A DNA stretch of 64,000 nt. Source: an uncultured Christensenella sp. (GTDB lineage: Bacteria > Bacillota > Clostridia > Christensenellales > UBA1750). The position numbers and the translations under genes were made by a program. The notes beneath the pieces are model-generated. The model did no database searches and had not been told where the DNA came from. It saw nothing but the letters and a program-made list of their open reading frames with translations. Positions 774 through 12,045 of the stretch are shown in pieces. Positions within the stretch are counted from its first letter, which is position 1, and each line of letters starts with the position of its first letter. The stretch lies in NCBI GenBank assembly GCA_905193155.1, contig CAJJNQ010000005.1, positions 6,814 to 70,813 of the forward strand. Direction: 5' to 3'.

Positions 774-1673
774 TCACTTTTTCACGCACAGAGCGCGGAT
801 TTCTTCGGGAAGACCACTGCAAAAGCACATTTTCTTCCCCGTAAAAGGGTGCCGCAGCGCAAGACTCGATGAATGCAGCGCGAAGCGCTCCGCAAGCGCC
901 GGGTGCGCGCTGCCGTAAAGATAATCCCCCGTCACCGGATGCCCGATGTGCGCCATGTGCACACGAATTTGATGGGTTCTGCCGGTTTCCAGCTGCAACG
1001 AAACCAGCGTCCGATTCGTTTGTGGAAAGCGAGCGATTACTTGTCCTCGCGTCACGCTGGGCTTGCCGCTCTCGCAAACGCAGCGGCGCACGCTATCGCC
1101 CTCCATTCGGTCGATGGGCGCATCGATGGTGAAGCGGTTTTGTTCTATTATCCCTTCGCAGAGCGCGGCATACCCCCGCTCGAAATTCGGCGTGTGCAGG
1201 ATATCCATCAGGCGCTTGTGTATCAGCGTGGATTTCGCTACGGCCATTAAGCCGGAAGTCCCCTTGTCCAGCCGGTTGACGGGACGGAAAATGAACTTGT
1301 CTTTTCCCAGATAGAACGCGACGCGGTTGGCCAGCGTATTCAATTCCTGCCCCGGCATGGGAAGCGTTGCCAGCGGCGCAGGCTTGTTCAGAACGAGCAG
1401 CTCCTCGTCCTCGTAAACGATCTCCAGCGGACCTTCCTGCGGCACGATGCCCTGGTCGTATTCATCCTCGCAGAGCATTTCGAGCTTTTGCCCTTTGCAG
1501 ACGCAGGCGTTGGCATAAACGCTTTTGCCGTCCAACAGGATGCCTTTCTGCCGCTTGAGCGCGCGAATCTGCCGGTCCGAAACGCCAAAGACGGCGCGCA
1601 GCACATCATCTGCCCGCCGTCCGTCCATTTCCTCCGTCACGAGGAAAGCATAGCCTTTATTTTGCCCGGTCAC
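774..1673 (-). CDS. RluA-family 23S rRNA/tRNA pseudouridine synthase with N-terminal S4-like domain
   Basis: 299 aa. Motifs VNRLDKGTSGLMAVAK and GRTHQIRVHMAHIGHPVTGDYLYG. 4-nt overlap with the upstream gene. Confidence 0.9.
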   Translation of the reverse strand: MTGQNKGYAFLVTEEMDGRRADDVLRAVFGVSDRQIRALKRQKGILLDGKSVYANACVCKGQKLEMLCEDEYDQGIVPQEGPLEIVYEDEELLVLNKPAPLATLPMPGQELNTLANRVAFYLGKDKFIFRPVNRLDKGTSGLMAVAKSTLIHKRLMDILHTPNFERGYAALCEGIIEQNRFTIDAPIDRMEGDSVRRCVCESGKPSVTRGQVIARFPQTNRTLVSLQLETGRTHQIRVHMAHIGHPVTGDYLYGSAHPALAERFALHSSSLALRHPFTGKKMCFCSGLPEEIRALCVKK

Positions 1674-2203
1674 TTTTCCAATACCTTGGAGTACTGTGCC
1701 ATCATATTCACCATCTCCTGCGAAGGCTCGATCAGCAACAGTGTCTTTTTTCCGTCGCGGATGAAGAACAGGTAGTAAAGGCGGGATTTTCCGTTGAGGA
1801 AATAATCCAGGCGCTTGACGTCCTTCATAGAGAGATAACGGTCGAAGACGTCGGTATCCGCCCAGCCGCCGGCCTCCATCTCGCGCATGCGCACCGTGGT
1901 CAGCTGCTTTCTGCGGGAATTGCCCAGCACCTTGGCCACGTCCATCTCGCCGTTGGTAAAGGTGTACTCGTATTCCGTGCGGAAATTATCCTTGTAGCGG
2001 TAGAGCAGGAAGGCCACGCCGCCGCCCACGATAAAGCTGACGAAATTGGCGACCTGGAAATCCAGCGAAAGAATACCGGATAGGCCGATCATGCCGTAAA
2101 GGCCGAAGGCGACGATCAGTATCCAGCACATCACAAACCCGATGGCGCTCACTGCACGCCCCTGCTTGCGGACGACTACTTCTTCTTTAAAATTATCCAT
2201 CAA
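1670..2203 (-). CDS. Hypothetical membrane protein (2 predicted TM helices), family not recognised
   Basis: 177 aa. Hydrophobic stretches AIGFVMCWILIVAFGLYGMIGL and FVSFIVGGGVAFLLY. Translationally coupled (ATGA-type overlap) to the rluA-like gene. Confidence 0.6.
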   Translation of the reverse strand: MMDNFKEEVVVRKQGRAVSAIGFVMCWILIVAFGLYGMIGLSGILSLDFQVANFVSFIVGGGVAFLLYRYKDNFRTEYEYTFTNGEMDVAKVLGNSRRKQLTTVRMREMEAGGWADTDVFDRYLSMKDVKRLDYFLNGKSRLYYLFFIRDGKKTLLLIEPSQEMVNMMAQYSKVLEK

Positions 2204-2439
2204 ACCAAACCTCCAACAAACGCATCGTTATTTAACAATCATTGTATCATCTTTCCCCGCGTTTGGATAGTTTATTTTTGCTGTTTTTCCGGCAGGATTT
2301 TTTGTGGCTTTGGTCGAATAGTGTGAATTGGCGTATTTGACCCGACTGTGCGCTGCGGAGCTTTTTTCGCCGCACCGACAGAGTCTATGCGCAAAATATA
2401 GAGATGAGAAATCACACCCATAGGAGGCGGACATCCTTT

Positions 2440-5400
2440 ATGAAATGCCCTTCTTGCGGAATTTGGAATAGAGCGCATTTTACCAAGTGCTTTCGCTGCG
2501 GCGCACCGCTGACCGGCGAAAAGAACGCATCCGAAAAGAAACCGGACGCCGAGGAAGAAGAAGTTTCCTCCTCCGTTGACGAATCGACGGCGGCCGAAAC
2601 ACCCATTTTCTCCCCCGAGGACGCGCCGGAGGTTCTGGCTGAAGCGGTGGAAGAATCGCTGGACGATGCGCAGCATCCGGAAGAGCCGCATAGCGGCGAG
2701 GAAGCCGATCCCCTTTCGGACAGCGAAATCTTCTCCCTCTATGATCAGGGCGACTGGTCAGACGACGAGGAAGACGATTCCGAAGAGATTTACGCAGGCG
2801 CATCCGCACCGCCGCAAGCGCCCTTCATCCGCCCGGTGGAAACGCTGGACGGCGACGATGAGCCGCCGACGGTTTACAGGCCTGCTGCGCCGGAAAAAAA
2901 GTCTCCCCCGCTCCCTTCCGTGCCGGAGGACGATGAACCCGTAACGGTCTATCGTGCGCCGGAAAAGCCGGCCGAGGAAGCACCCGCACAGGAAACCCGT
3001 CGTTTTGCACCGGTCTCGCCGGACGCAGTGGATGGCAGCACGCGCAAGTTCGCGCCTATCGGCACTGCCGCTGCGGCCGACGCTCCCGTTCCTCCTTTGA
3101 ATGACACGGAGCCGGAGGTCACGCCTACCGATCCTTCCATCAGTCACGAGATCATCCACGCGATCTTCACCAATCCGCCTGCGCATTTGGAGCCTGGGCA
3201 TGATATCATGGACGACCCGCGCCCGCGCAAGCTGATGAGCCGCAAGCGCCTGCCGCCGCAGCCGGAAATCGAGGAAGAACCCGAAACCGTATACAAGCCG
3301 CGCGAGCAAAAGGCGGAGCCCCGCGTAGACAACGTAGAAGAGTTCAAGCCCACCGCGCGCCTTGCAGCGCAAAAGGCCGATGAAAAGGGCGATGAATTCA
3401 CCGCCTTTGCTACCGCAAAGCGCAACTTGGTCGCCGAAGTGGAGCCGAATGATCCTTTTGAAGAAGCCATCGGCATTCCCCACAGCGAAAAAGCTGCGGA
3501 AGCGACGAAGGAGGAAGCGCCCGAAAAGGCGGAGACTCCTGCGGAAGCTCCCGCACAGCCCGAACCCGTTAAACCTGCGGAGCCGGAACAGCCCGCCTGG
3601 GTCAAGGAGGCTCTGCTCAATCTGGGACAGGAGCAGCAGATGAACAATCTTTCTTCTTCTCGCACGTCAGGCAATCGTTCCCGCCGCCTGCCCCAGCCCA
3701 ATCTGGAATACGAGCCGGAGACCGCGCAGCAGCGCCCTTCCCGCCGCGTGCAAGCGGAGGAAATCCGCCGCGAACCGGAAGAAGGCTTTGCGCCCCGTTC
3801 CGAGCGAAGAGAGCGCCCCTCCCGCCGCCCTGCCGTGCCGATGCAGCAGCCGCAGGAAGAGCCGGAAGCCCCGGCGTACAGCGCACCCCGCAGCGGTTTA
3901 GAGGCCATCGCCCGGTATGAATCCAACCGCAGTAACTCCGTGCTGAGCCGCCGCCGCACAGCGCCTGCGGCTGAGACTGCGCCGCAGGCGGAACCCATTC
4001 CCGCTCAGGAACAGCGTATGGAAGAAACCGTTCGCCCCGCTCGGAGAGAAGCGCGTCCCTTTCGCCCTGTCAGCCGCGCGCCGCAACGCGAAGAAATAGT
4101 GGAAGAAACGGAACGTTTGCCGCGGGAAGAGCGCCCGGAAGCGCCCACGCGGCTGCATTCCTCCCGCACGGCCGAACCCGACTCCTCCGCCCGCTTCAGC
4201 GCGAAGGAACTGCGCATCGGCGGACTGCGCGTGCAGAACCCGATCCGCGCCGCCATTGTCGCGCTCATCGCGCTGGCACTGGTCGGTCTGCTGATCTGGG
4301 GCATCGTGGCGGGTATTTCCGCCATTGCAAAGGGCGTTTCCAAGCCGAATCCGTCTGAATCCCCCGCTCCTTCGGAAACGCAGCCGGCGGAAGCGGATCC
4401 CAACGCGCCCGTGGTCACGACCGGTGAGGTCAACGGCCGGCCCGGACACATCATCACCTTCAAGGGCAATGACAATGACATCATCTATATTTCGGATGAG
4501 AACCTTTCCGGCAGCTACAACATCGCCATTGTAGACGGCATCGGCACGCTGCAAATTGAGGACAGCGCGCTGATCGGCGACCGCTATGTGGACAGTGATG
4601 TGGAAGTGACGCTCAATCCGGTTCTGCATGAATCGGGCAGCGGCAAGGAAACCAAGATGTCTCCCATCACCTTCACCGTCACCCCGCCGGACGCTTATCT
4701 GGAAATCGTCAGCCCGGCAGGCGGAGCGGATGAGACGACCCTGAGCATCTATCAGGTCAAGATCCGTGTGGAAACCGGCTCCTCCGTCACCATCGACGGC
4801 AACGACGTTTCCGACATGCTTACCGAAGAGGATAACGGCATGGGCTCCATCGTCACCAACGTCAACGTGGAAGCCAAGGGTGAAAACCAGATTCCGATCA
4901 CGGTCATGAAGAAGGGCTGCAAATCGGTCACGCAGAACATCGTGCTGACCCGCCCCGAAATGACCATCCCGATTGAGCTGGATGCTGCGACGCCTTCGAC
5001 GGTGCAGAGCGATACCGTCACCATCTCCGGCACGGTGGAAGCGGGCGTCAAGGTTTCCGTGACCTCGCCCATCAGCGGCGAAGTGACAAACAACAGCGAT
5101 GGCAGCTTCTCCTTTGTAGCCAAGCTATCCTTCGGTGAAAACGACATTGTCATTGTCGCCACCAAGGGCGAAGAAACCTCCACGCTGACCCACACCGTTA
5201 CCTATGAGCCGACTTACAGCGAATACGTCAACAAGGCGTACAAGATGGACTACGCCAATCTGGCCACTTATGCGGGCAAATATCAGCCCTTCCTGTGCAG
5301 CGGTCAGGTTGTGGAGGTATTCCAGACCGAGCCGTATACCTGCACCTTCAACGTGGGTACGGCAGAGGATCCCAAGTACATCTACCTCCAGATGGTGCCC

Positions 5401-5517
5401 GGCAAGCCGCTGGAAGAGGGCAAGACCTATAAGGTATACGCCGATGTGGATGCTTCCGGCACGAAGGACGGTTATCCCTACATGATCGGCCGCTTCTTCC
5501 TGGAGGTTGCGCAGTAA
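2440..5517 (+). CDS. Bitopic membrane protein: N-terminal zinc ribbon, ~600-aa acidic/Pro-rich disordered cytoplasmic region, one TM, ~395-aa extracellular beta-rich (Ig-like) region (TcaA/YvbJ-like architecture)
   Basis: ORF 2404..5517. I prefer the ATG at 2440 (MKCPSCGIWNRAHFTKCFRCGAPL) with AGGAGG at 2422..2427. TM is IRAAIVALIALALVGLLIWGIVAGISAIA (about 4246..4320). C-terminal part has repeated beta-strand-like segments (VTISGTVEAGVKVSVTSPISGEVTNNSDGSFSF). Confidence 0.8.
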   Translation: MKCPSCGIWNRAHFTKCFRCGAPLTGEKNASEKKPDAEEEEVSSSVDESTAAETPIFSPEDAPEVLAEAVEESLDDAQHPEEPHSGEEADPLSDSEIFSLYDQGDWSDDEEDDSEEIYAGASAPPQAPFIRPVETLDGDDEPPTVYRPAAPEKKSPPLPSVPEDDEPVTVYRAPEKPAEEAPAQETRRFAPVSPDAVDGSTRKFAPIGTAAAADAPVPPLNDTEPEVTPTDPSISHEIIHAIFTNPPAHLEPGHDIMDDPRPRKLMSRKRLPPQPEIEEEPETVYKPREQKAEPRVDNVEEFKPTARLAAQKADEKGDEFTAFATAKRNLVAEVEPNDPFEEAIGIPHSEKAAEATKEEAPEKAETPAEAPAQPEPVKPAEPEQPAWVKEALLNLGQEQQMNNLSSSRTSGNRSRRLPQPNLEYEPETAQQRPSRRVQAEEIRREPEEGFAPRSERRERPSRRPAVPMQQPQEEPEAPAYSAPRSGLEAIARYESNRSNSVLSRRRTAPAAETAPQAEPIPAQEQRMEETVRPARREARPFRPVSRAPQREEIVEETERLPREERPEAPTRLHSSRTAEPDSSARFSAKELRIGGLRVQNPIRAAIVALIALALVGLLIWGIVAGISAIAKGVSKPNPSESPAPSETQPAEADPNAPVVTTGEVNGRPGHIITFKGNDNDIIYISDENLSGSYNIAIVDGIGTLQIEDSALIGDRYVDSDVEVTLNPVLHESGSGKETKMSPITFTVTPPDAYLEIVSPAGGADETTLSIYQVKIRVETGSSVTIDGNDVSDMLTEEDNGMGSIVTNVNVEAKGENQIPITVMKKGCKSVTQNIVLTRPEMTIPIELDAATPSTVQSDTVTISGTVEAGVKVSVTSPISGEVTNNSDGSFSFVAKLSFGENDIVIVATKGEETSTLTHTVTYEPTYSEYVNKAYKMDYANLATYAGKYQPFLCSGQVVEVFQTEPYTCTFNVGTAEDPKYIYLQMVPGKPLEEGKTYKVYADVDASGTKDGYPYMIGRFFLEVAQ

Positions 5518-5732: not shown

Positions 5733-6062
5733 TTGCAGCAAGTGGATTATTCTCTGCTGGGCACCCGCATCCGACTCAAACGAAAAGAAATGGGCATCAC
5801 GCAGGCAGAGATGGCTGAGCGCTGCGGCGTATCCGTTCCCTTCATCGGCCACATCGAGCGCGGTTCCCGCGCACCCAGCATGGAGAGCTTCTTGGGGATT
5901 TGCCGCGTGCTCCATGTCACGCCGGATTTCCTTTTGCAGGATTACATTGAATTTGAGGTCATGGAAAACGCCCGCAATTCCAAAATCACCAATACCGATT
6001 TGCTTACGCTGGACAAGATCTCCCGTGTACTGCGCGAAAGCAGTACGGAATGGGAAGATTGA
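5733..6062 (+). CDS. XRE-family helix-turn-helix transcriptional regulator
   Basis: 109 aa. LGTRIRLKRKEMGITQAEMAERCGVSVPFIGHIERGSRAPSMESFLGICRVL is a classic HTH_3 pattern. TTG start with AAAGGAGGG 7 nt upstream. Confidence 0.85.
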   Translation: MQQVDYSLLGTRIRLKRKEMGITQAEMAERCGVSVPFIGHIERGSRAPSMESFLGICRVLHVTPDFLLQDYIEFEVMENARNSKITNTDLLTLDKISRVLRESSTEWED

Positions 6063-6099: not shown

Positions 6100-6153
6100 A
6101 AAAAAGGCTGTCCGTCTGTAAAAGCACAGACGGACAGCCTTTTGTCTTCCTTT
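6100..6153. terminator. Bidirectional terminator between convergent XRE and trxA genes
   Basis: aaggctgtccgtctgt (6104..6119) pairs with acagacggacagcctt (6126..6141). A-run upstream and T-rich tract downstream. Confidence 0.8.
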
Positions 6154-7708: not shown

Positions 7709-8239
7709 TCAAAAAGGCTCTGCCTGCTGCATCAAATCGTATAAATTGATCACAGTGCGCGCATTTTCCCCCGCCATGCGGACGGTCTGCCCGGTGCCGG
7801 TGCGCGGGTCGTGATTCCAATAGGCAATCAGGATGTCCGCGTTGCGCACAAGATATTCATTGCGCTTGCGGAAGCTGTCTTTCCGCTTTTCCTGCGTCAC
7901 GACGACCTGATCGCAGGCACACTGCAAGACCTCCTGATAGGCCCTCTTCCAGCGCTCGCCGGAAATATCCCAGCTGTGATCCGGGTAGGGCAGCACCGCC
8001 ACGACACCCACGGATTCCGGCAGCACGCCGCTCCTGTGCAGCCGCAGCACCCGCTGGGCAGCGAAGAGGTCAAACCCGCTGGCCATGCCGCAAAGGAAAT
8101 AACGCACGTCCTGCTGCCGCACCAGCAGCTCTACTGCGCGGTCCAAATGTCGCTCCAGCATTTCGGTTCGGGCGGAACGCAGATCAAACGCCATGCCGAC
8201 GCGTGGGCGATGTCCCGTAAAGCTCGCCGCGTGCTCCAT
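7709..8239 (-). CDS. DUF1273 / YpsA-like SLOG-family protein
   Basis: 176 aa. N-terminal FTGHRP motif and CGMASGFDLFAAQ, typical of YpsA-like SLOG proteins. Confidence 0.7.
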   Translation of the reverse strand: MEHAASFTGHRPRVGMAFDLRSARTEMLERHLDRAVELLVRQQDVRYFLCGMASGFDLFAAQRVLRLHRSGVLPESVGVVAVLPYPDHSWDISGERWKRAYQEVLQCACDQVVVTQEKRKDSFRKRNEYLVRNADILIAYWNHDPRTGTGQTVRMAGENARTVINLYDLMQQAEPF

Positions 8240-8290
8240 CTGCTCCGCCTCCCCCTCTCAAGATCATCTTGTCCAGTATAGCATTATTTT

Positions 8291-8350
8291 GACAGAAAAG
8301 AAATACGGCCGCCGTGAGAAAGCAAAAATTGTCTTTCCCCGGCCGCCGTA
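8291..8350 (-). terminator. Probable terminator downstream of mscS
   Basis: tacggccgccg (8304..8314) pairs with cggccgccgta (8340..8350) at 10 of 11 positions, with a 25-nt loop. T-rich tract follows on the minus strand (tttcttttc). The large loop lowers confidence. Confidence 0.5.
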
Positions 8351-8361
8351 TCGTTTTTCAG

Positions 8362-9213
8362 CTATTTGGTGATGATGACCATGGTATTGCGATCGAACGT
8401 GCGCTTGATTTTTTGCAGCAGGTCGTAGTTCAAATCCCACAGGTTTTCCGCCTTGACCCAAACGCGCAGCGTCAGCGTTGCGTTTCCCTCCGCAGAAAAG
8501 CCCGTCAGGCGCAGGAAGGGCTTTTCGGGCTCCTCCAGAATTCTGTCTTTTTCCTCCTCCAACACACTTTGAATCAGATCGATAGCCACCTGCGGATCAC
8601 CCTTGCCAAGAATGGCAAAGTTCAAATCCAAACGCCTCAGCTTTTCCGACGAATAATTGATGATCGTCGATTTGGCAACCGTATTGTTCGGCACCACGAT
8701 GTGCCGGTTGTCCAAGGTCTTGAGCGTTGTGTTCATCAGGCCGATCTGCGTCACCACACCGCTCTGCCCACCGATATCGACAAAATCGCCATCCTTGAAG
8801 GGCGCGTTCGCCAGCAGGAGCACGCCGCTGGCGAAGTTGGAAAGACTGTCCTTGAGCGCCAAACCGATTGCCACGCCTGCTGTGCCTACCGCCGTAATCA
8901 GCGAGGTTGTCGGGATGCCGAGCACCGACATTACAATCAGAATCAGAAAAACATAGTCCACAATCTTGATCGTGGAGAGAATAAAAGCATGGAGCGTTTC
9001 ACTGATATGGGAACGCTTGAGTCCGCGCTTGCTGATCTTGAGCAGCCAACGAATCAGGAAATAGCCCACCGCCAGCACGATGAGCGCCTTTGCCGCCAGC
9101 ACCAGATAATCCAGACCCGTATCCAGCAGCCTGTCCCAGTTGGTCTTGGTCAGCTCCGGTGCGATTTGATTGATCTGCTCAGATACCTGAGCCGCAATTT
9201 CTTCCTGCGTCAT
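8362..9213 (-). CDS. Small-conductance mechanosensitive channel (MscS family)
   Basis: 283 aa. TM region plus GVAIGLALKDSLSNFASGVLLLANAPFKDGDFV and VPNNTVAKSTIINYS, typical of MscS. 4-nt overlap with the LCP gene. Confidence 0.85.
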   Translation of the reverse strand: MTQEEIAAQVSEQINQIAPELTKTNWDRLLDTGLDYLVLAAKALIVLAVGYFLIRWLLKISKRGLKRSHISETLHAFILSTIKIVDYVFLILIVMSVLGIPTTSLITAVGTAGVAIGLALKDSLSNFASGVLLLANAPFKDGDFVDIGGQSGVVTQIGLMNTTLKTLDNRHIVVPNNTVAKSTIINYSSEKLRRLDLNFAILGKGDPQVAIDLIQSVLEEEKDRILEEPEKPFLRLTGFSAEGNATLTLRVWVKAENLWDLNYDLLQKIKRTFDRNTMVIITK

Positions 9214-10511
9214 GCGTCGGGAAGGAGCGCGCGCACGGCGCTCATGGCCTCCTGCATTTTCGACGTGCTGCCGCTGGAAACAGCGCTCTTGAGGTTATTG
9301 TATGCCGCAGAGACGGTAGAATCTTCCAGATCTGCGTAATCTTCCATATAGGAGATCATTTCCTCCGCCTGCATTGTGACCTCGGTGATGTCCGCTTCGT
9401 CGCCCGTTCCATCGCCGGTCTGGTCGCCCAGTACACGCGCTTCAATGGCTTCGAGCGTGATGTCCTGATCAAAGGGACCTTCAATGCCGAAGATTTCCTT
9501 GACCATCTCGTTTTTCTTGTTCTGGTTGATGATGTAATACGAGGTCGAACCGACATACTGCCCCTCGCCGGGAACGGTGTGGCGCTGAATCTGATCCATC
9601 GAAAGATCCTTGGCAAAATAGGCCAGCGTCGCAATCTGCAAGGTGCTCAGGTTGGTGTCGATATTCTCCTGCACAGCGGCATAGATATCGGGAATGTTCT
9701 TGACCTGATTGGTCGCCAGCATGGTTTCAAAAATCTTGAACAGCATCCGCTGCTGACGATCCACGCGATCCACGTCTCCTCTGCCGCCCTTGCGCCAACG
9801 GCAGTAGTCGAGCACCTGCTGACCATCCATGTGCTGCATGCCCGTCTTGGTCTCGCGGCCGCAGAGAGTAAAGGCAATATCCACGTCATAATCCACGCCG
9901 CCCATGGCGTTGACCACGTCCTTGACCACGTTCATGCCGAAGCCGACGTAGTAATCGATCTTGACGCCCAACAAATCGGAGACGGTGTTCATCGCGTAGG
10001 CATAGCCGTCCTTCTGCGCTCCGCCGCCAAAGGTGAAGGCTGCGTTGATCTTGTTGAACTTGCCGCCCTTGTTGATTCGCATATAACTATCGCGCGGGAT
10101 GGAGATCATATCCACATCCTTGTTGTCAAAGTCCACCGTGACCAGCATCATGGTATCGGTACGGAAATTCATGCCCGCCGAGATGCGCTCGGTGGAGCTA
10201 TCCGCGCCCAGAAGCAATATATTGACGCGCTTTTTCTCAAAGTCATAATCGGGCTGCGTCATCTCAGGCTCCGGGGTGGCCGTAGGCTCCGGCGTGAGCG
10301 CTTCATCGGTCTGCTCCGGCGTAGCCGTGGGCTCCGGCGTGGGTTCCGGAGTAGCGACGAGATCCACCTTCCGGGTCTCCTCCAGCTCCGAGAATGCATT
10401 TTTAGGATTCGATACATAGGCAATCAGCCACACGCCGCTGCCGATTGCACCGACCAGGATCACCGTAACCACGATCAGCACGATGCGCAGGGCGTTGTTT
10501 TTTTTCGCCAC
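9210..10511 (-). CDS. LytR-CpsA-Psr (LCP) family cell-wall glycopolymer transferase
   Basis: 433 aa. N-terminal TM, Pro/Thr/Glu linker, NILLLGADS...RTDTMMLVTVD core motif. Confidence 0.85.
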   Translation of the reverse strand: MAKKNNALRIVLIVVTVILVGAIGSGVWLIAYVSNPKNAFSELEETRKVDLVATPEPTPEPTATPEQTDEALTPEPTATPEPEMTQPDYDFEKKRVNILLLGADSSTERISAGMNFRTDTMMLVTVDFDNKDVDMISIPRDSYMRINKGGKFNKINAAFTFGGGAQKDGYAYAMNTVSDLLGVKIDYYVGFGMNVVKDVVNAMGGVDYDVDIAFTLCGRETKTGMQHMDGQQVLDYCRWRKGGRGDVDRVDRQQRMLFKIFETMLATNQVKNIPDIYAAVQENIDTNLSTLQIATLAYFAKDLSMDQIQRHTVPGEGQYVGSTSYYIINQNKKNEMVKEIFGIEGPFDQDITLEAIEARVLGDQTGDGTGDEADITEVTMQAEEMISYMEDYADLEDSTVSAAYNNLKSAVSSGSTSKMQEAMSAVRALLPDA

Positions 10512-10606
10512 TTTTCAACACCTCCGTATAAAATACGACTGGATAGGCAATTCGTTTCCATAAATAGAAAATCCTTTGCCTTTCCGTTTTTCCCTTGTTA
10601 GTTTTT

Positions 10607-10650
10607 CGCAAAGAAAGAGCTTCACCGCCGGAATACCGGAAGCGAAGCTC
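10607..10650 (-). terminator. Terminator after hisF
   Basis: gagcttcaccgccgg (10617..10631) pairs with ccggaagcgaagctc (10636..10650). tttctttgcg follows on the minus strand. Confidence 0.75.
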
Positions 10651-10661
10651 CTCATCTTTTT

Positions 10662-11417
10662 TCAGATGCGGACGGGAATGCTCTGCGCAGCCAGTGTGCG
10701 CTTCAAATCCATGATTTCCAACTGCTTATAGTGAAAGAGCGAAGCGGCCAGCGCCGCGTCTGCGCCGCCCTCGGTGAGCACCCGGGCAAAATCCTGTGCA
10801 CACCCCGCGCCGCCGGAAGCAATCACAGGAACCTCAACCGCAGAGGTGACGGCTTTCGTCAGCCTCATGTCAAAGCCCGCCTTGGTGCCGTCCGCATCCA
10901 TCGACGTCAGCAGCAGTTCGCCTGCCCCCAACTGCACGACCTTTTGCGCCCATTGCACGGCGTCCAGCCCCGTGGGCGTGCGTCCGCCATGGGTATAGAC
11001 CTCGAAAAACGTACCGTTCCACTTTGCATCAATGGCCACGACCACGCACTGGGAGCCGAATTTCTTCGCGGCCTCTGTGAGCAATTCCGGATGCGCCACG
11101 GCGAAGGAATTGACGCTCACCTTCTCCGCACCTGCGTGCAGCAGATCGGAATAATCCTCAATGCTGCGGATGCCTCCGCCGACCGTAAAGGGGATATAGA
11201 CCGCTTTAGCCACGGCACGGACAGTATCGAGCATGATGCGCCGCGCGTCCGACGACGCAGTGATATCCAGAAAGGTCAGCTCGTCCGCGCCCGCTTTGTC
11301 ATAGGCCGCGGCGCATTCCACCGGGTCGCCCGCGTCGGTCAGATTCACGAAGTTGATTCCCTTGACCACGCGGCCGTTTTTCACGTCCAAGCAGGGAATG
11401 ATTCTCTTTGCCAGCAT
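10662..11417 (-). CDS. hisF: Imidazole glycerol phosphate synthase, cyclase subunit
   Basis: 251 aa. [15 protein letters not shown] and VIASGGAG motifs. Full-length HisF pattern. Confidence 0.95.
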
Positions 11418-11436
11418 AAAGACGCTTCCTCCCCTC

Positions 11437-12045
11437 TTATTTCATCGACGCAAAGTTCTTCAGCAGTGCAAGGCCGGTTTCACCACTCTTTTCCGGATGA
11501 AACTGCACGGCCCAAAGGCTGCCTTTACGCACGGCGACATCCATCGGCACGCCGTAATCCACCTGCGCCAGCACCTGATCGCGCTGCAAAGCGTGAACAT
11601 AATAAGAGTGAACGAAATACATCCAAGGCTTTTCGGGAAGACCGGAAAAAAGCGGATCGTCCTTCATGATATTGAGCTGATTCCAGCCCATGTGCGGGAT
11701 TTTACGCCCCTGTCCGGAGGGAATGCGCTTGACCTGCCCTCGCAGCCAGCAAAGCCCCTTCGCGCCGGGCGTTTCCTCACTGGACTCAAAGAGCAGCTGT
11801 TCCCCGATACAGATGCCTAGGAACGGTCTGCCGGAGGCGATAAACTCCTCCATCGCCTGCACGGCACCGCTGGCGCGCAGCTGCTCCATCGCATCGCCGA
11901 ACGCACCCACGCCCGGAAGAATGACCGCGTCAGCGGAAAGGATCTCCCCAGCATCGCGGGTCAGCAGTGATTTTTTCCCGATATATTCCAGCGCGTGCAT
12001 CACGCTGCGCACGTTGCCGGCGCCGTAATCCACCACAGCGATCAT
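11437..12045 (-). CDS. hisH: Imidazole glycerol phosphate synthase, glutamine amidotransferase subunit
   Basis: 202 aa. [25 protein letters not shown] (catalytic Cys), FHPEKSG. 4-nt overlap with the ANTAR gene. Confidence 0.95.

Follow-up and report, generated by a model that had tools for sequence, protein, structure and literature searches.

The stretch analysed here, called the window throughout, comprises 64,000 nucleotides from an uncultured Christensenella sp. (assembly GCA_905193155.1, contig CAJJNQ010000005.1), and this report concerns a gene on its plus strand, at 2440..5517, which encodes a protein of 1025 residues that carries in databases, like its relatives, no name beyond 'hypothetical protein'. 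The open reading frame (ORF) is uninterrupted, with 1025 codons and a stop, as a sequence-only reading of this DNA had described it, and the identical 1025-aa product is recorded in NCBI, ENA and Logan assemblies. The longest form of the ORF begins at the ATG in position 2404; the ATG at 2440 was taken as the start because an AGGAGG box lies upstream of it and the homologues all begin with MKCPSCG. The intact ORF, the ribosome-binding site, the product on record and the conservation described below identify 2440..5517 as a genuine gene under constraint. The gene and the parts of its product are as follows.

2422..2427, plus strand: Shine-Dalgarno sequence AGGAGG, 12 nt 5′ of the ATG at 2440, surrounded by an extended conserved box, CACCCATAGGAGGCGGAC (2415-2432)
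2440..5517, plus strand: complete ORF for a zinc-ribbon, disordered-tail, transmembrane and ectodomain protein, bitopic with the N-terminus inside
2440..2511, plus strand: four-cysteine zinc ribbon MKCPSCGIWNRAHFTKCFRCGAPL (aa 1-24), near-invariant in the clade of the window
2512..4245, plus strand: predicted cytoplasmic disordered tail (aa 25-602), acidic distally and basic by the membrane
4246..4329, plus strand: single transmembrane helix (aa 603-630), the sole strongly hydrophobic stretch
4330..4410, plus strand: extracellular spacer rich in Pro, Ser and Glu (aa 631-657), modelled with low confidence
4411..5205, plus strand: three tandem immunoglobulin (Ig)-like beta-sandwiches (about aa 658-747, 751-838 and 845-922)
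5215..5514, plus strand: C-terminal domain (aa 926-1025), made up of two helices and five strands, with abundant conserved aromatic residues and without family assignment

The layout proposed in the sequence-only reading, namely a zinc ribbon, a long disordered tail, one transmembrane helix and an Ig-like ectodomain, was recovered as described, with coordinates that agree within a few bases; the helix, which had been placed at 4246..4320, corresponds to a hydrophobic stretch at nt 4246-4329 and is set at aa 601-634 in the AlphaFold2 model. Arg and Lys residues lie on the N-terminal side of this helix, and an N-in topology is therefore predicted. The four cysteines of the ribbon (C3, C6, C17 and C20) are all invariant in 81 aligned family sequences. 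The ribbon matches Zn_ribbon_RanBP, Zn_Ribbon_1 and DZR of Pfam below threshold, and the RanBP2/NZF spacing C-x2-C-x3-N-x6-C-x2-C fits (C3, C6, N10, C17, C20; Pfam score of 22 bits vs a cut-off of 27), a cysteine spacing which is also typical of generic bacterial zinc-ribbon families. Searches of Pfam, NCBIfam, PADLOC and PHROGs returned for the whole protein only sub-threshold zinc-ribbon and Big-like matches.

The searches showed that the protein is no singleton oddity. A word-indexed search of 5.8 billion proteins gave about 20 clusters, from Christensenellaceae, Christensenella sp. and Candidatus Spyradocola assemblies, and the full-length query gave 17 protein clusters, of which 15 have an identity of 45-99%. 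An exhaustive HMMER profile search of 1.84 billion cluster representatives (50% identity) then defined a Clostridial family of 452 representatives at E<=1e-3, of which 233 at E<=1e-10. Most of the members have 450-700 aa and align from the transmembrane helix to the C-terminus, typically over profile positions ~520-1045. In the 142 representatives retrieved, one transmembrane helix is present in nearly all and an N-terminal CxxC..CxxC in 108, the remainder being mostly fragments, and the linker between ribbon and helix ranges from 14 to 848 aa with a median of 146. The linker of the window protein, of about 575 aa, falls in the upper tail of this distribution, so that its unusual length, pointed out before, holds; compared in this way, the protein stands at the long-linker end of a continuous distribution within a large unnamed family of Clostridia. 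A profile search of the PDB returned for this family zinc ribbons only.

Two candidate homologues, P0005 and P0006, in which the last 165-240 residues of the family are joined to unrelated N-termini, were rejected as true homologues with other domains. In the shared part P0005 reaches 98% identity, and its N-terminus is that of an HlyD-like adaptor; P0006 carries a different unrelated N-terminal sequence. Both most probably arose as chimeras of assembly or gene calling on short contigs. We also observed that the antisense strand of the gene is almost free of stops: in the window, antisense ORFs of 241-284 aa lie over the tail region (2758-4629, minus strand), and at locus L001 an antisense ORF of 1209 aa (7838-11566) lies opposite an intact sense ORF of 1242 aa. 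In the public annotation of L001 the real gene is cut to 521 aa (P0003) and two antisense ORFs are called instead.

The tail combines predicted disorder with short stretches under strong conservation. Modelled with AlphaFold2 on aa 1-640 from a 14-sequence alignment, the tail has a mean predicted local distance difference test (pLDDT) score of 46, in line with the disorder proposed before, and apart from the transmembrane helix only short helices appear, at aa 238-244, 306-315, 386-404 and 486-498. Its approximately 575 residues include 16% Glu, 14% Pro, 12.5% Ala and 9% Arg, with a net charge of -52 which is distributed unevenly, from about -34 in the fifth next to the zinc ribbon to about +3 in the fifth next to the membrane. 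This acidic-to-basic gradient is kept in 20 of the 20 long-linker members examined, even where the sequence is unalignable; in long-linker members the distal fifth carries about -30 and the membrane-proximal fifth +3 to +16. Column conservation, computed on an alignment of 14 full-length sequences, reaches 0.8-0.9 in nine islands, which amount to about 120 residues or one-fifth of the tail, vs 0.38 in the 455 residues between them and 0.79 in the ectodomain. The islands are the zinc ribbon, SLYDxGDW with an acidic run, the EPxTVY motifs, the TR(R/K)F pair, PGISHEIIHAIFTNPP, RPRKLMSRKR, a 54-residue block at aa 293-346, PAWVKEALxNLG and SGLxAIAR. Along the tail they are placed as follows.

2734..2769, plus strand: acidic-aromatic island SLYDQGDWSDDE (aa 99-110); other subfamilies also have LYDxG[WYF]-like motifs
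2854..2883, plus strand: motif copy 1, DDEPPTVYRP (aa 139-148)
2929..2961, plus strand: motif copy 2, DDEPVTVYRAP (aa 164-174)
2992..3060, plus strand: duplicated pair ETRRFAPV ... STRKFAPI (aa 185-207)
3112..3180, plus strand: island PEVTPTDPSISHEIIHAIFTNPP (aa 225-247), with a predicted short helix at aa 238-244
3217..3300, plus strand: basic island PRPRKLMSRKR (aa 260-270), then motif copy 3, EEEPETVYKP (aa 278-287), whose EEEPETVYK begins at nt 3271
3316..3477, plus strand: the longest island, EPRVDNVEEFKPTARLAAQKADEKGDEFTAFATAKRNLVAEVEPNDPFEEAIGI (aa 293-346), with a predicted helix at aa 306-315
3592..3651, plus strand: island PAWVKEALLNLG with a predicted helix (aa 385-404, pLDDT about 75)
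3889..3921, plus strand: island RSGLEAIARYE (aa 484-494), inside the predicted helix at aa 486-498

The three (D/E)(D/E)EPxTVY(R/K) motifs reported by the sequence-only reading are indeed present, at aa 139, 164 and 278, as is the duplicated R(R/K)FAP(V/I), with RRFAPV starting at aa 187 and RKFAPI at aa 202. In 20,000 composition-preserving shuffles of the tail, none contained any match to [DE][DE]EPxTVY[RK], vs the three observed. Furthermore, all homologues with an identity of 45% or more have between one and five copies of the motif, in which Thr is the most constant residue and is retained in variants such as DDEPLTAY, EDEPETQF and EEEPATRY; this conservation favours docking-type motifs over drift, the alternative against which the motifs had been set from the start. 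Basic patches of the ER(R)ERPSRRP kind had been listed with them, and here only the occurrence was confirmed: RPSRR is found twice (aa 432 and 459), in a weakly conserved part of the tail. At locus L004, from a Spyradocola relative, the motif lies in a 93-nt tandem repeat with three copies (four of the motif core) at 89-93% DNA identity, and from this near-identity we conclude that the motif copy number changes by recent duplication. Besides this repeat, the locus (repeats at 9809-10122 and 10998-11087) contains four copies of an 18-nt unit, which add a peptide repeat of the (D)SRS(T)LD type to the half of the tail nearer the membrane and are a further sign of rapid repeat turnover.

The distribution of the islands across the family is uneven. 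In the most distant member, P0022, only the PAWVKEALLNLG island, which occurs there twice, and the LYDxG-W island are recognisable. Other long-linker lineages (P0144-P0148) keep the ectodomain and a very similar ribbon, CG(I/V)WNR..CFRCGA, and lack the islands without exception, which indicates that the island set is an invention of the clade of the window. LYDxG[WYF]-like motifs are found in 22 of 120 linkers, with 0.3 expected by chance. We also noted a subfamily (P0159, P0166, P0179, P0224, P0243 and others) with linkers of about 190-260 aa and a sharply conserved (AP)VLYDGY, located 10-50 residues before the transmembrane helix, which resembles the SLYDxGDW island of the window clade.

These data bear directly on the possibility that the tail is a passive spacer, that is, an entropic bristle or a length-setting linker whose motifs are relics of ancestry and tandem duplication. 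The hypervariable linker length (14-848 aa), the drift of most of the tail (conservation of 0.38), the lineages with long linkers and no islands and the recent tandem duplication in one relative would all suit such a spacer. The islands, however, stay at 0.8-0.9 in homologues which are 45-60% identical overall and whose flanking sequences are unalignable, copies of the motif are kept at both ancient and recent duplication ages, and the short predicted helices of the tail coincide with the conserved islands, so that we consider a purely passive role very unlikely. On this pattern of conservation, the tail is not mere compositional drift.

The composition of the motif raises a second possibility, which is a special case of docking. 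The motif Thr (EPxT-V-Y, ET-R-K-F, EEPxT-R-Y) might be phosphorylated by a Hanks-type Ser/Thr kinase and the tail would then act as a phospho-switch hub, recruiting or releasing FHA-type or other readers, as does the cytoplasmic domain of MapZ. Thr is the best-kept residue across the variants, and the disordered context of the motifs is the one in which kinase sites are usually met. The motif carries acidic residues at -3 to -5, a hydrophobic or aromatic residue at each of +1 and +2, and a basic one at +3. This arrangement loosely recalls the PknA-dependent phosphothreonine sites of Mycobacterium tuberculosis, which are acidic at -3 to -6, hydrophobic at +3 and basic at +4 (PMC7164672), although the register is one residue off the mycobacterial logo, which itself comes from another phylum. 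Moreover, no kinase, phosphatase or FHA gene was found in the window or in the conserved neighbourhoods (ftsZ was likewise absent from the window and the retrieved loci), and Thr-Val-Tyr has a high beta-strand propensity, so that the motif could dock by strand addition without phosphorylation. Phosphorylation as the basis of docking thus appears rather unlikely.

On the other side of the membrane, the ectodomain model (aa 631-1025) is beta-rich, with a mean pLDDT of 87, and consists of a spacer of about 25 residues, the three sandwiches and the last domain, the folded C-terminal part amounting to 370 aa. The third Ig-like domain gave weak matches to Glucodextran_B and Big_6. A curated model for the ectodomain was found neither in the protein nor in 80 further members, the 81 aligned sequences giving only zinc-ribbon and weak Big_6/Glucodextran_B matches. 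An OB-fold (tRNA_anti-like) for the C-terminal domain was considered and rejected, as it came from a marginal match in one of the 81 members. Foldseek searches with the model against the PDB and BFVD (viral models) retrieved only generic tandem-Ig matches with a TM-score <0.3, including SiiE, FdeC, cadherins, titin and phage Ig proteins. As estimated from the alignment, the ectodomain is the slowest-evolving part of the protein, and constraint is strongest in this outer stalk and in the small ribbon at the N-terminus.

These results also speak to the idea of a surface adhesin, in which the protein would serve to bind host mucus, other cells or phage through its Ig-like ectodomain, with the cytoplasmic part being of no consequence. 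Adhesins and Ig-repeat surface or phage proteins (SiiE, FdeC, cadherins, phage Ig proteins) are indeed the nearest neighbours in structure, and close relatives come from human gut assemblies. Yet the matches are of the generic tandem-Ig kind at TM-scores <0.3, and whereas adhesins evolve fast, no part of this protein is better conserved than the ectodomain (0.79); four small domains, for which we estimate a reach of ~12-16 nm, would hardly extend beyond a Gram-positive wall. The protein carries neither an LPXTG nor an S-layer anchoring motif, and the strongly conserved ribbon and islands imply that the inside part matters. An adhesin therefore strikes us as highly improbable.

The gene lies among housekeeping genes, and no phage or defence signature was detected at the locus with libraries that included PADLOC and PHROGs. 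In the clade the gene order is an RluA-type pseudouridine synthase, a 176-aa protein with two transmembrane helices, the gene itself (divergent), and then XRE, thioredoxin, RseC, ThiF, YpsA, MscS and LCP genes. The elements closest to the gene in the window are the following.

1670..2200, minus strand: DUF6106-like protein of 176-177 aa, with two transmembrane helices and a cytoplasmic domain of ~105 aa that contains an invariant EYEYTFTNG; the divergent upstream neighbour
2201..2439, no strand assigned: intergenic region between the two divergent genes; several of its blocks are kept even at the most distant loci
5733..6062, plus strand: XRE-family helix-turn-helix regulator (HTH_3), 109 aa, without a strong terminator between it and the ORF
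6102..6143, no strand assigned: hairpin with a perfect 18-bp stem and T/A-rich flanks, between the convergent XRE and thioredoxin genes

The divergent neighbour, for which Pfam, NCBIfam, PADLOC and PHROGs gave no match above threshold, scores 15.9 bits with PF19601 vs a cut-off of 25; homologues of it at 39-49% identity carry PF19601, and one of them (P0081, 44%) is named 'DUF6106 family protein' by NCBI. Its family comprises 241 clusters, some annotated as DUF6106, in which the core KDxxRTEYEYTFTNGxLD is invariant, and a profile search of the PDB found no sequence relatives of DUF6106. The gene is adjacent and divergent in 10 of 10 clade loci, including distant ones in which other neighbours have changed: at L006, from the clade member farthest from the window, the genes on either flank are different ones and XRE has been lost, and the 176-aa gene is still adjacent and divergent. 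Among seven loci of other Clostridia, a short-linker member is divergently adjacent to a DUF6106-like gene in three and lies within 2 kb of it in two more. In a metagenome scan, 80 loci were found through the DUF6106 alignment; a family member was adjacent and divergent in 51 of the 63 informative loci and absent in 12, and 16 loci were too short. After dereplication at 70% identity, a family member stands beside DUF6106 in 9 of 15 lineages and is absent in 6 of 15. The DUF6106-like gene, which the sequence-only reading had not mentioned, is thus a recurrent genomic partner, frequent and not universal.

Outside the close clade (L014-L020 and L006), an iscS-like gene and thiI come after the DUF6106 gene, and several spore-forming Clostridia have the spoIIIA operon beyond these; in the clade of the window the RluA-type pseudouridine synthase takes the iscS-like/thiI position. 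With hmmsearch, the family members at L015-L020 were confirmed.

In the intergenic region, all ten clade loci share the blocks ATTGTATCATCTTT (2241-2254), GTTTGGATA (2261-2269), GCAGGATTTTTTGTG (2292-2306) and TCGAAT..AATTGGCGTAT (2314-2336), the first of which can also be written ATTGTAyCAT.TTT and the last TCGAAT..AATTGGCGT. These blocks are presumed to be promoter or operator elements, and the first of them, read on the minus strand as TGnTACAAT, looks like an extended -10 element for the DUF6106 gene. For the 5′ region, Rfam gave no match and no covarying structure was detected. The hairpin at 6102..6143 is, by its stem and flanks, a probable bidirectional terminator.

The XRE gene had been noted as lying immediately downstream, and an HTH_3 gene is encoded there, at 5733..6062; its conservation is limited to the close clade, and it is absent beside L006 and beside short-linker members. 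As a family-wide partner it was rejected on these grounds. The gene is also relevant to a sequestration scheme of the anti-sigma type, in which the ectodomain would sense an envelope cue while ribbon and tail hold a regulator (XRE or a sigma factor) that is freed by regulated proteolysis. A bitopic layout with an N-terminal metal-binding module is common to membrane anti-sigma factors, the XRE gene follows without a strong terminator and is kept in the close clade, and the conserved divergent intergenic blocks could be operators. Nevertheless, the XRE gene is missing at L006 and at the short-linker loci, the 81 members contain no anti-sigma domain (ZAS, RsgI_N) apart from one marginal Sigma_reg_N match, no sigma factor gene is adjacent to the gene, no site-1 or site-2 protease gene is linked, and a ribbon of 24 aa is small for a regulator-binding domain. 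Such sequestration is, in our judgement, quite improbable.

Among known proteins, the architecture recalls the TcaA/YvbJ type, which had been named for comparison, and also Llmg_0526. TcaA of Staphylococcus aureus has an intracellular zinc finger, one transmembrane helix and a mostly extracellular body according to an AlphaFold model (PMC10328498), and Llmg_0526 of Lactococcus lactis has a CX2CX10CX2C motif, one transmembrane helix and similarity to TcaA (PMC4628341). The window protein shares with them and with YvbJ of Bacillus subtilis the N-terminal cytoplasmic CxxC..CxxC module, the single helix and the bulk of the protein outside; TcaA and Llmg_0526 are both implicated in cell-envelope properties, and a role in glycopeptide susceptibility or wall teichoic acid retention counts among the marks of the TcaA/YvbJ type. 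The publications retrieved for YvbJ use the locus as an integration site and give no functional data. In these three proteins the ribbon is close to the membrane, whereas in the window protein it is separated from it by approximately 575 disordered, motif-bearing residues. No TcaA-named model was found in Pfam or NCBIfam at E<=1 for the protein or at E<=0.01 in the 81 aligned members. Pfam presumably holds TcaA domain models, and the protein is set apart from TcaA by curated-model scans as opposed to direct sequence comparison; so judged, the resemblance is architectural only and the protein is not a member of that family. The TcaA/YvbJ likeness thus goes no further than layout, as no TcaA-type ectodomain model occurs in the protein or in 80 further members.

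Closer in concept is MapZ (LocZ) of Streptococcus pneumoniae, a bitopic protein whose N-terminal domain, in the cytoplasm, is disordered and which has one transmembrane helix and a wall-binding extracellular domain; it carries Thr phosphosites, binds FtsZ and ties a fixed envelope position to cytoplasmic machinery. It differs in having no zinc ribbon and a cytoplasmic part of ~160 aa vs 600 here, and the ectodomains are unrelated, with no Pfam match to the MapZ extracellular domains in the protein or in 80 further members. The organisation of the disordered region has a parallel in the C-terminal scaffold of RNase E, a membrane-held disordered segment of ~500 aa in which short conserved microdomains recruit partners, Arg-rich segments are interspersed and the rest drifts; that scaffold is unrelated in sequence, has no ectodomain, is tethered by an amphipathic helix and not by a transmembrane one, and is fused to a catalytic domain. 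By analogy, the window protein is most like MapZ in concept and most like the RNase E scaffold in the organisation of its disordered region. A further parallel is CdpC of the archaeon Haloferax volcanii, in which a 243-aa disordered linker separates zinc-ribbon modules from a membrane-associating element, FtsZ1 is bound by one of the ribbons and held at the membrane in this way, and sequence change in the family is fast everywhere but in the ribbons (bioRxiv 10.64898/2026.07.16.738847). CdpC has two ribbons and an amphipathic-helix anchor, and neither transmembrane helix nor ectodomain, so that the comparison is one of analogy and no sequence relationship is claimed.

Taken together, the descriptive account of the architecture is secure, and the partners and the process are inferred from it. 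We favour, with moderate confidence, a reading in which the protein is an envelope-anchored tether whose disordered tail serves as a multivalent docking platform for cytoplasmic partners. The ectodomain would hold the protein to, or read, an invariant component of the cell's own envelope, and the tail would be a flexible platform on which the short linear motifs and the terminal zinc ribbon recruit cytoplasmic partners to that site. The DUF6106-like membrane protein, through its conserved cytoplasmic domain, would be the best candidate partner, and our leading guess for the process served is cell-envelope organisation or division.

Several points weigh against this tether with its docking platform. 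Candidate partners of tail, ribbon and ectodomain are inferences for every member of the family, and the Ig-like stalk offers no hint of a ligand. The linkage with DUF6106, absent in 6 of 15 lineages, could reflect inherited gene order and not function. The island set is clade-specific, and whatever the motifs bind is therefore not a family-wide need. Finally, disorder read from pLDDT on a 14-sequence alignment leaves room for folding on binding or for undetected structure.

The docking platform could be taken a step further, to a bacterial counterpart of the eukaryotic single-pass scaffolds whose signalling tails are disordered. Its motifs would either be phospho-switches or imitate the C-terminal peptide of FtsZ, with valency set by tandem duplication, DUF6106 would be a membrane co-receptor, and the ribbon and charge blocks would assemble, and perhaps condense, division or envelope-synthesis proteins at externally defined sites. 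This extension we regard as distinctly unlikely.

In bacteria, long disordered regions that contain conserved short linear motifs are seldom found and have been little studied. This family offers a natural experiment: its linkers, joined to one type of ectodomain, range between 14 and about 850 aa, and in one clade the linker has filled with conserved, duplicating motifs. Zinc-ribbon transmembrane proteins without an assigned role are common in Firmicutes, and the present family, frequent in gut Clostridia including human-gut Christensenellales, has neither a name, nor a Pfam model, nor a solved relative. The pairing with DUF6106 gives two uncharacterised families one shared and testable hypothesis. 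If the tail does act as a docking or phospho-regulated hub, the protein would reveal a way in which the cell wall is coupled to the cytoplasmic machinery in Gram-positive anaerobes.

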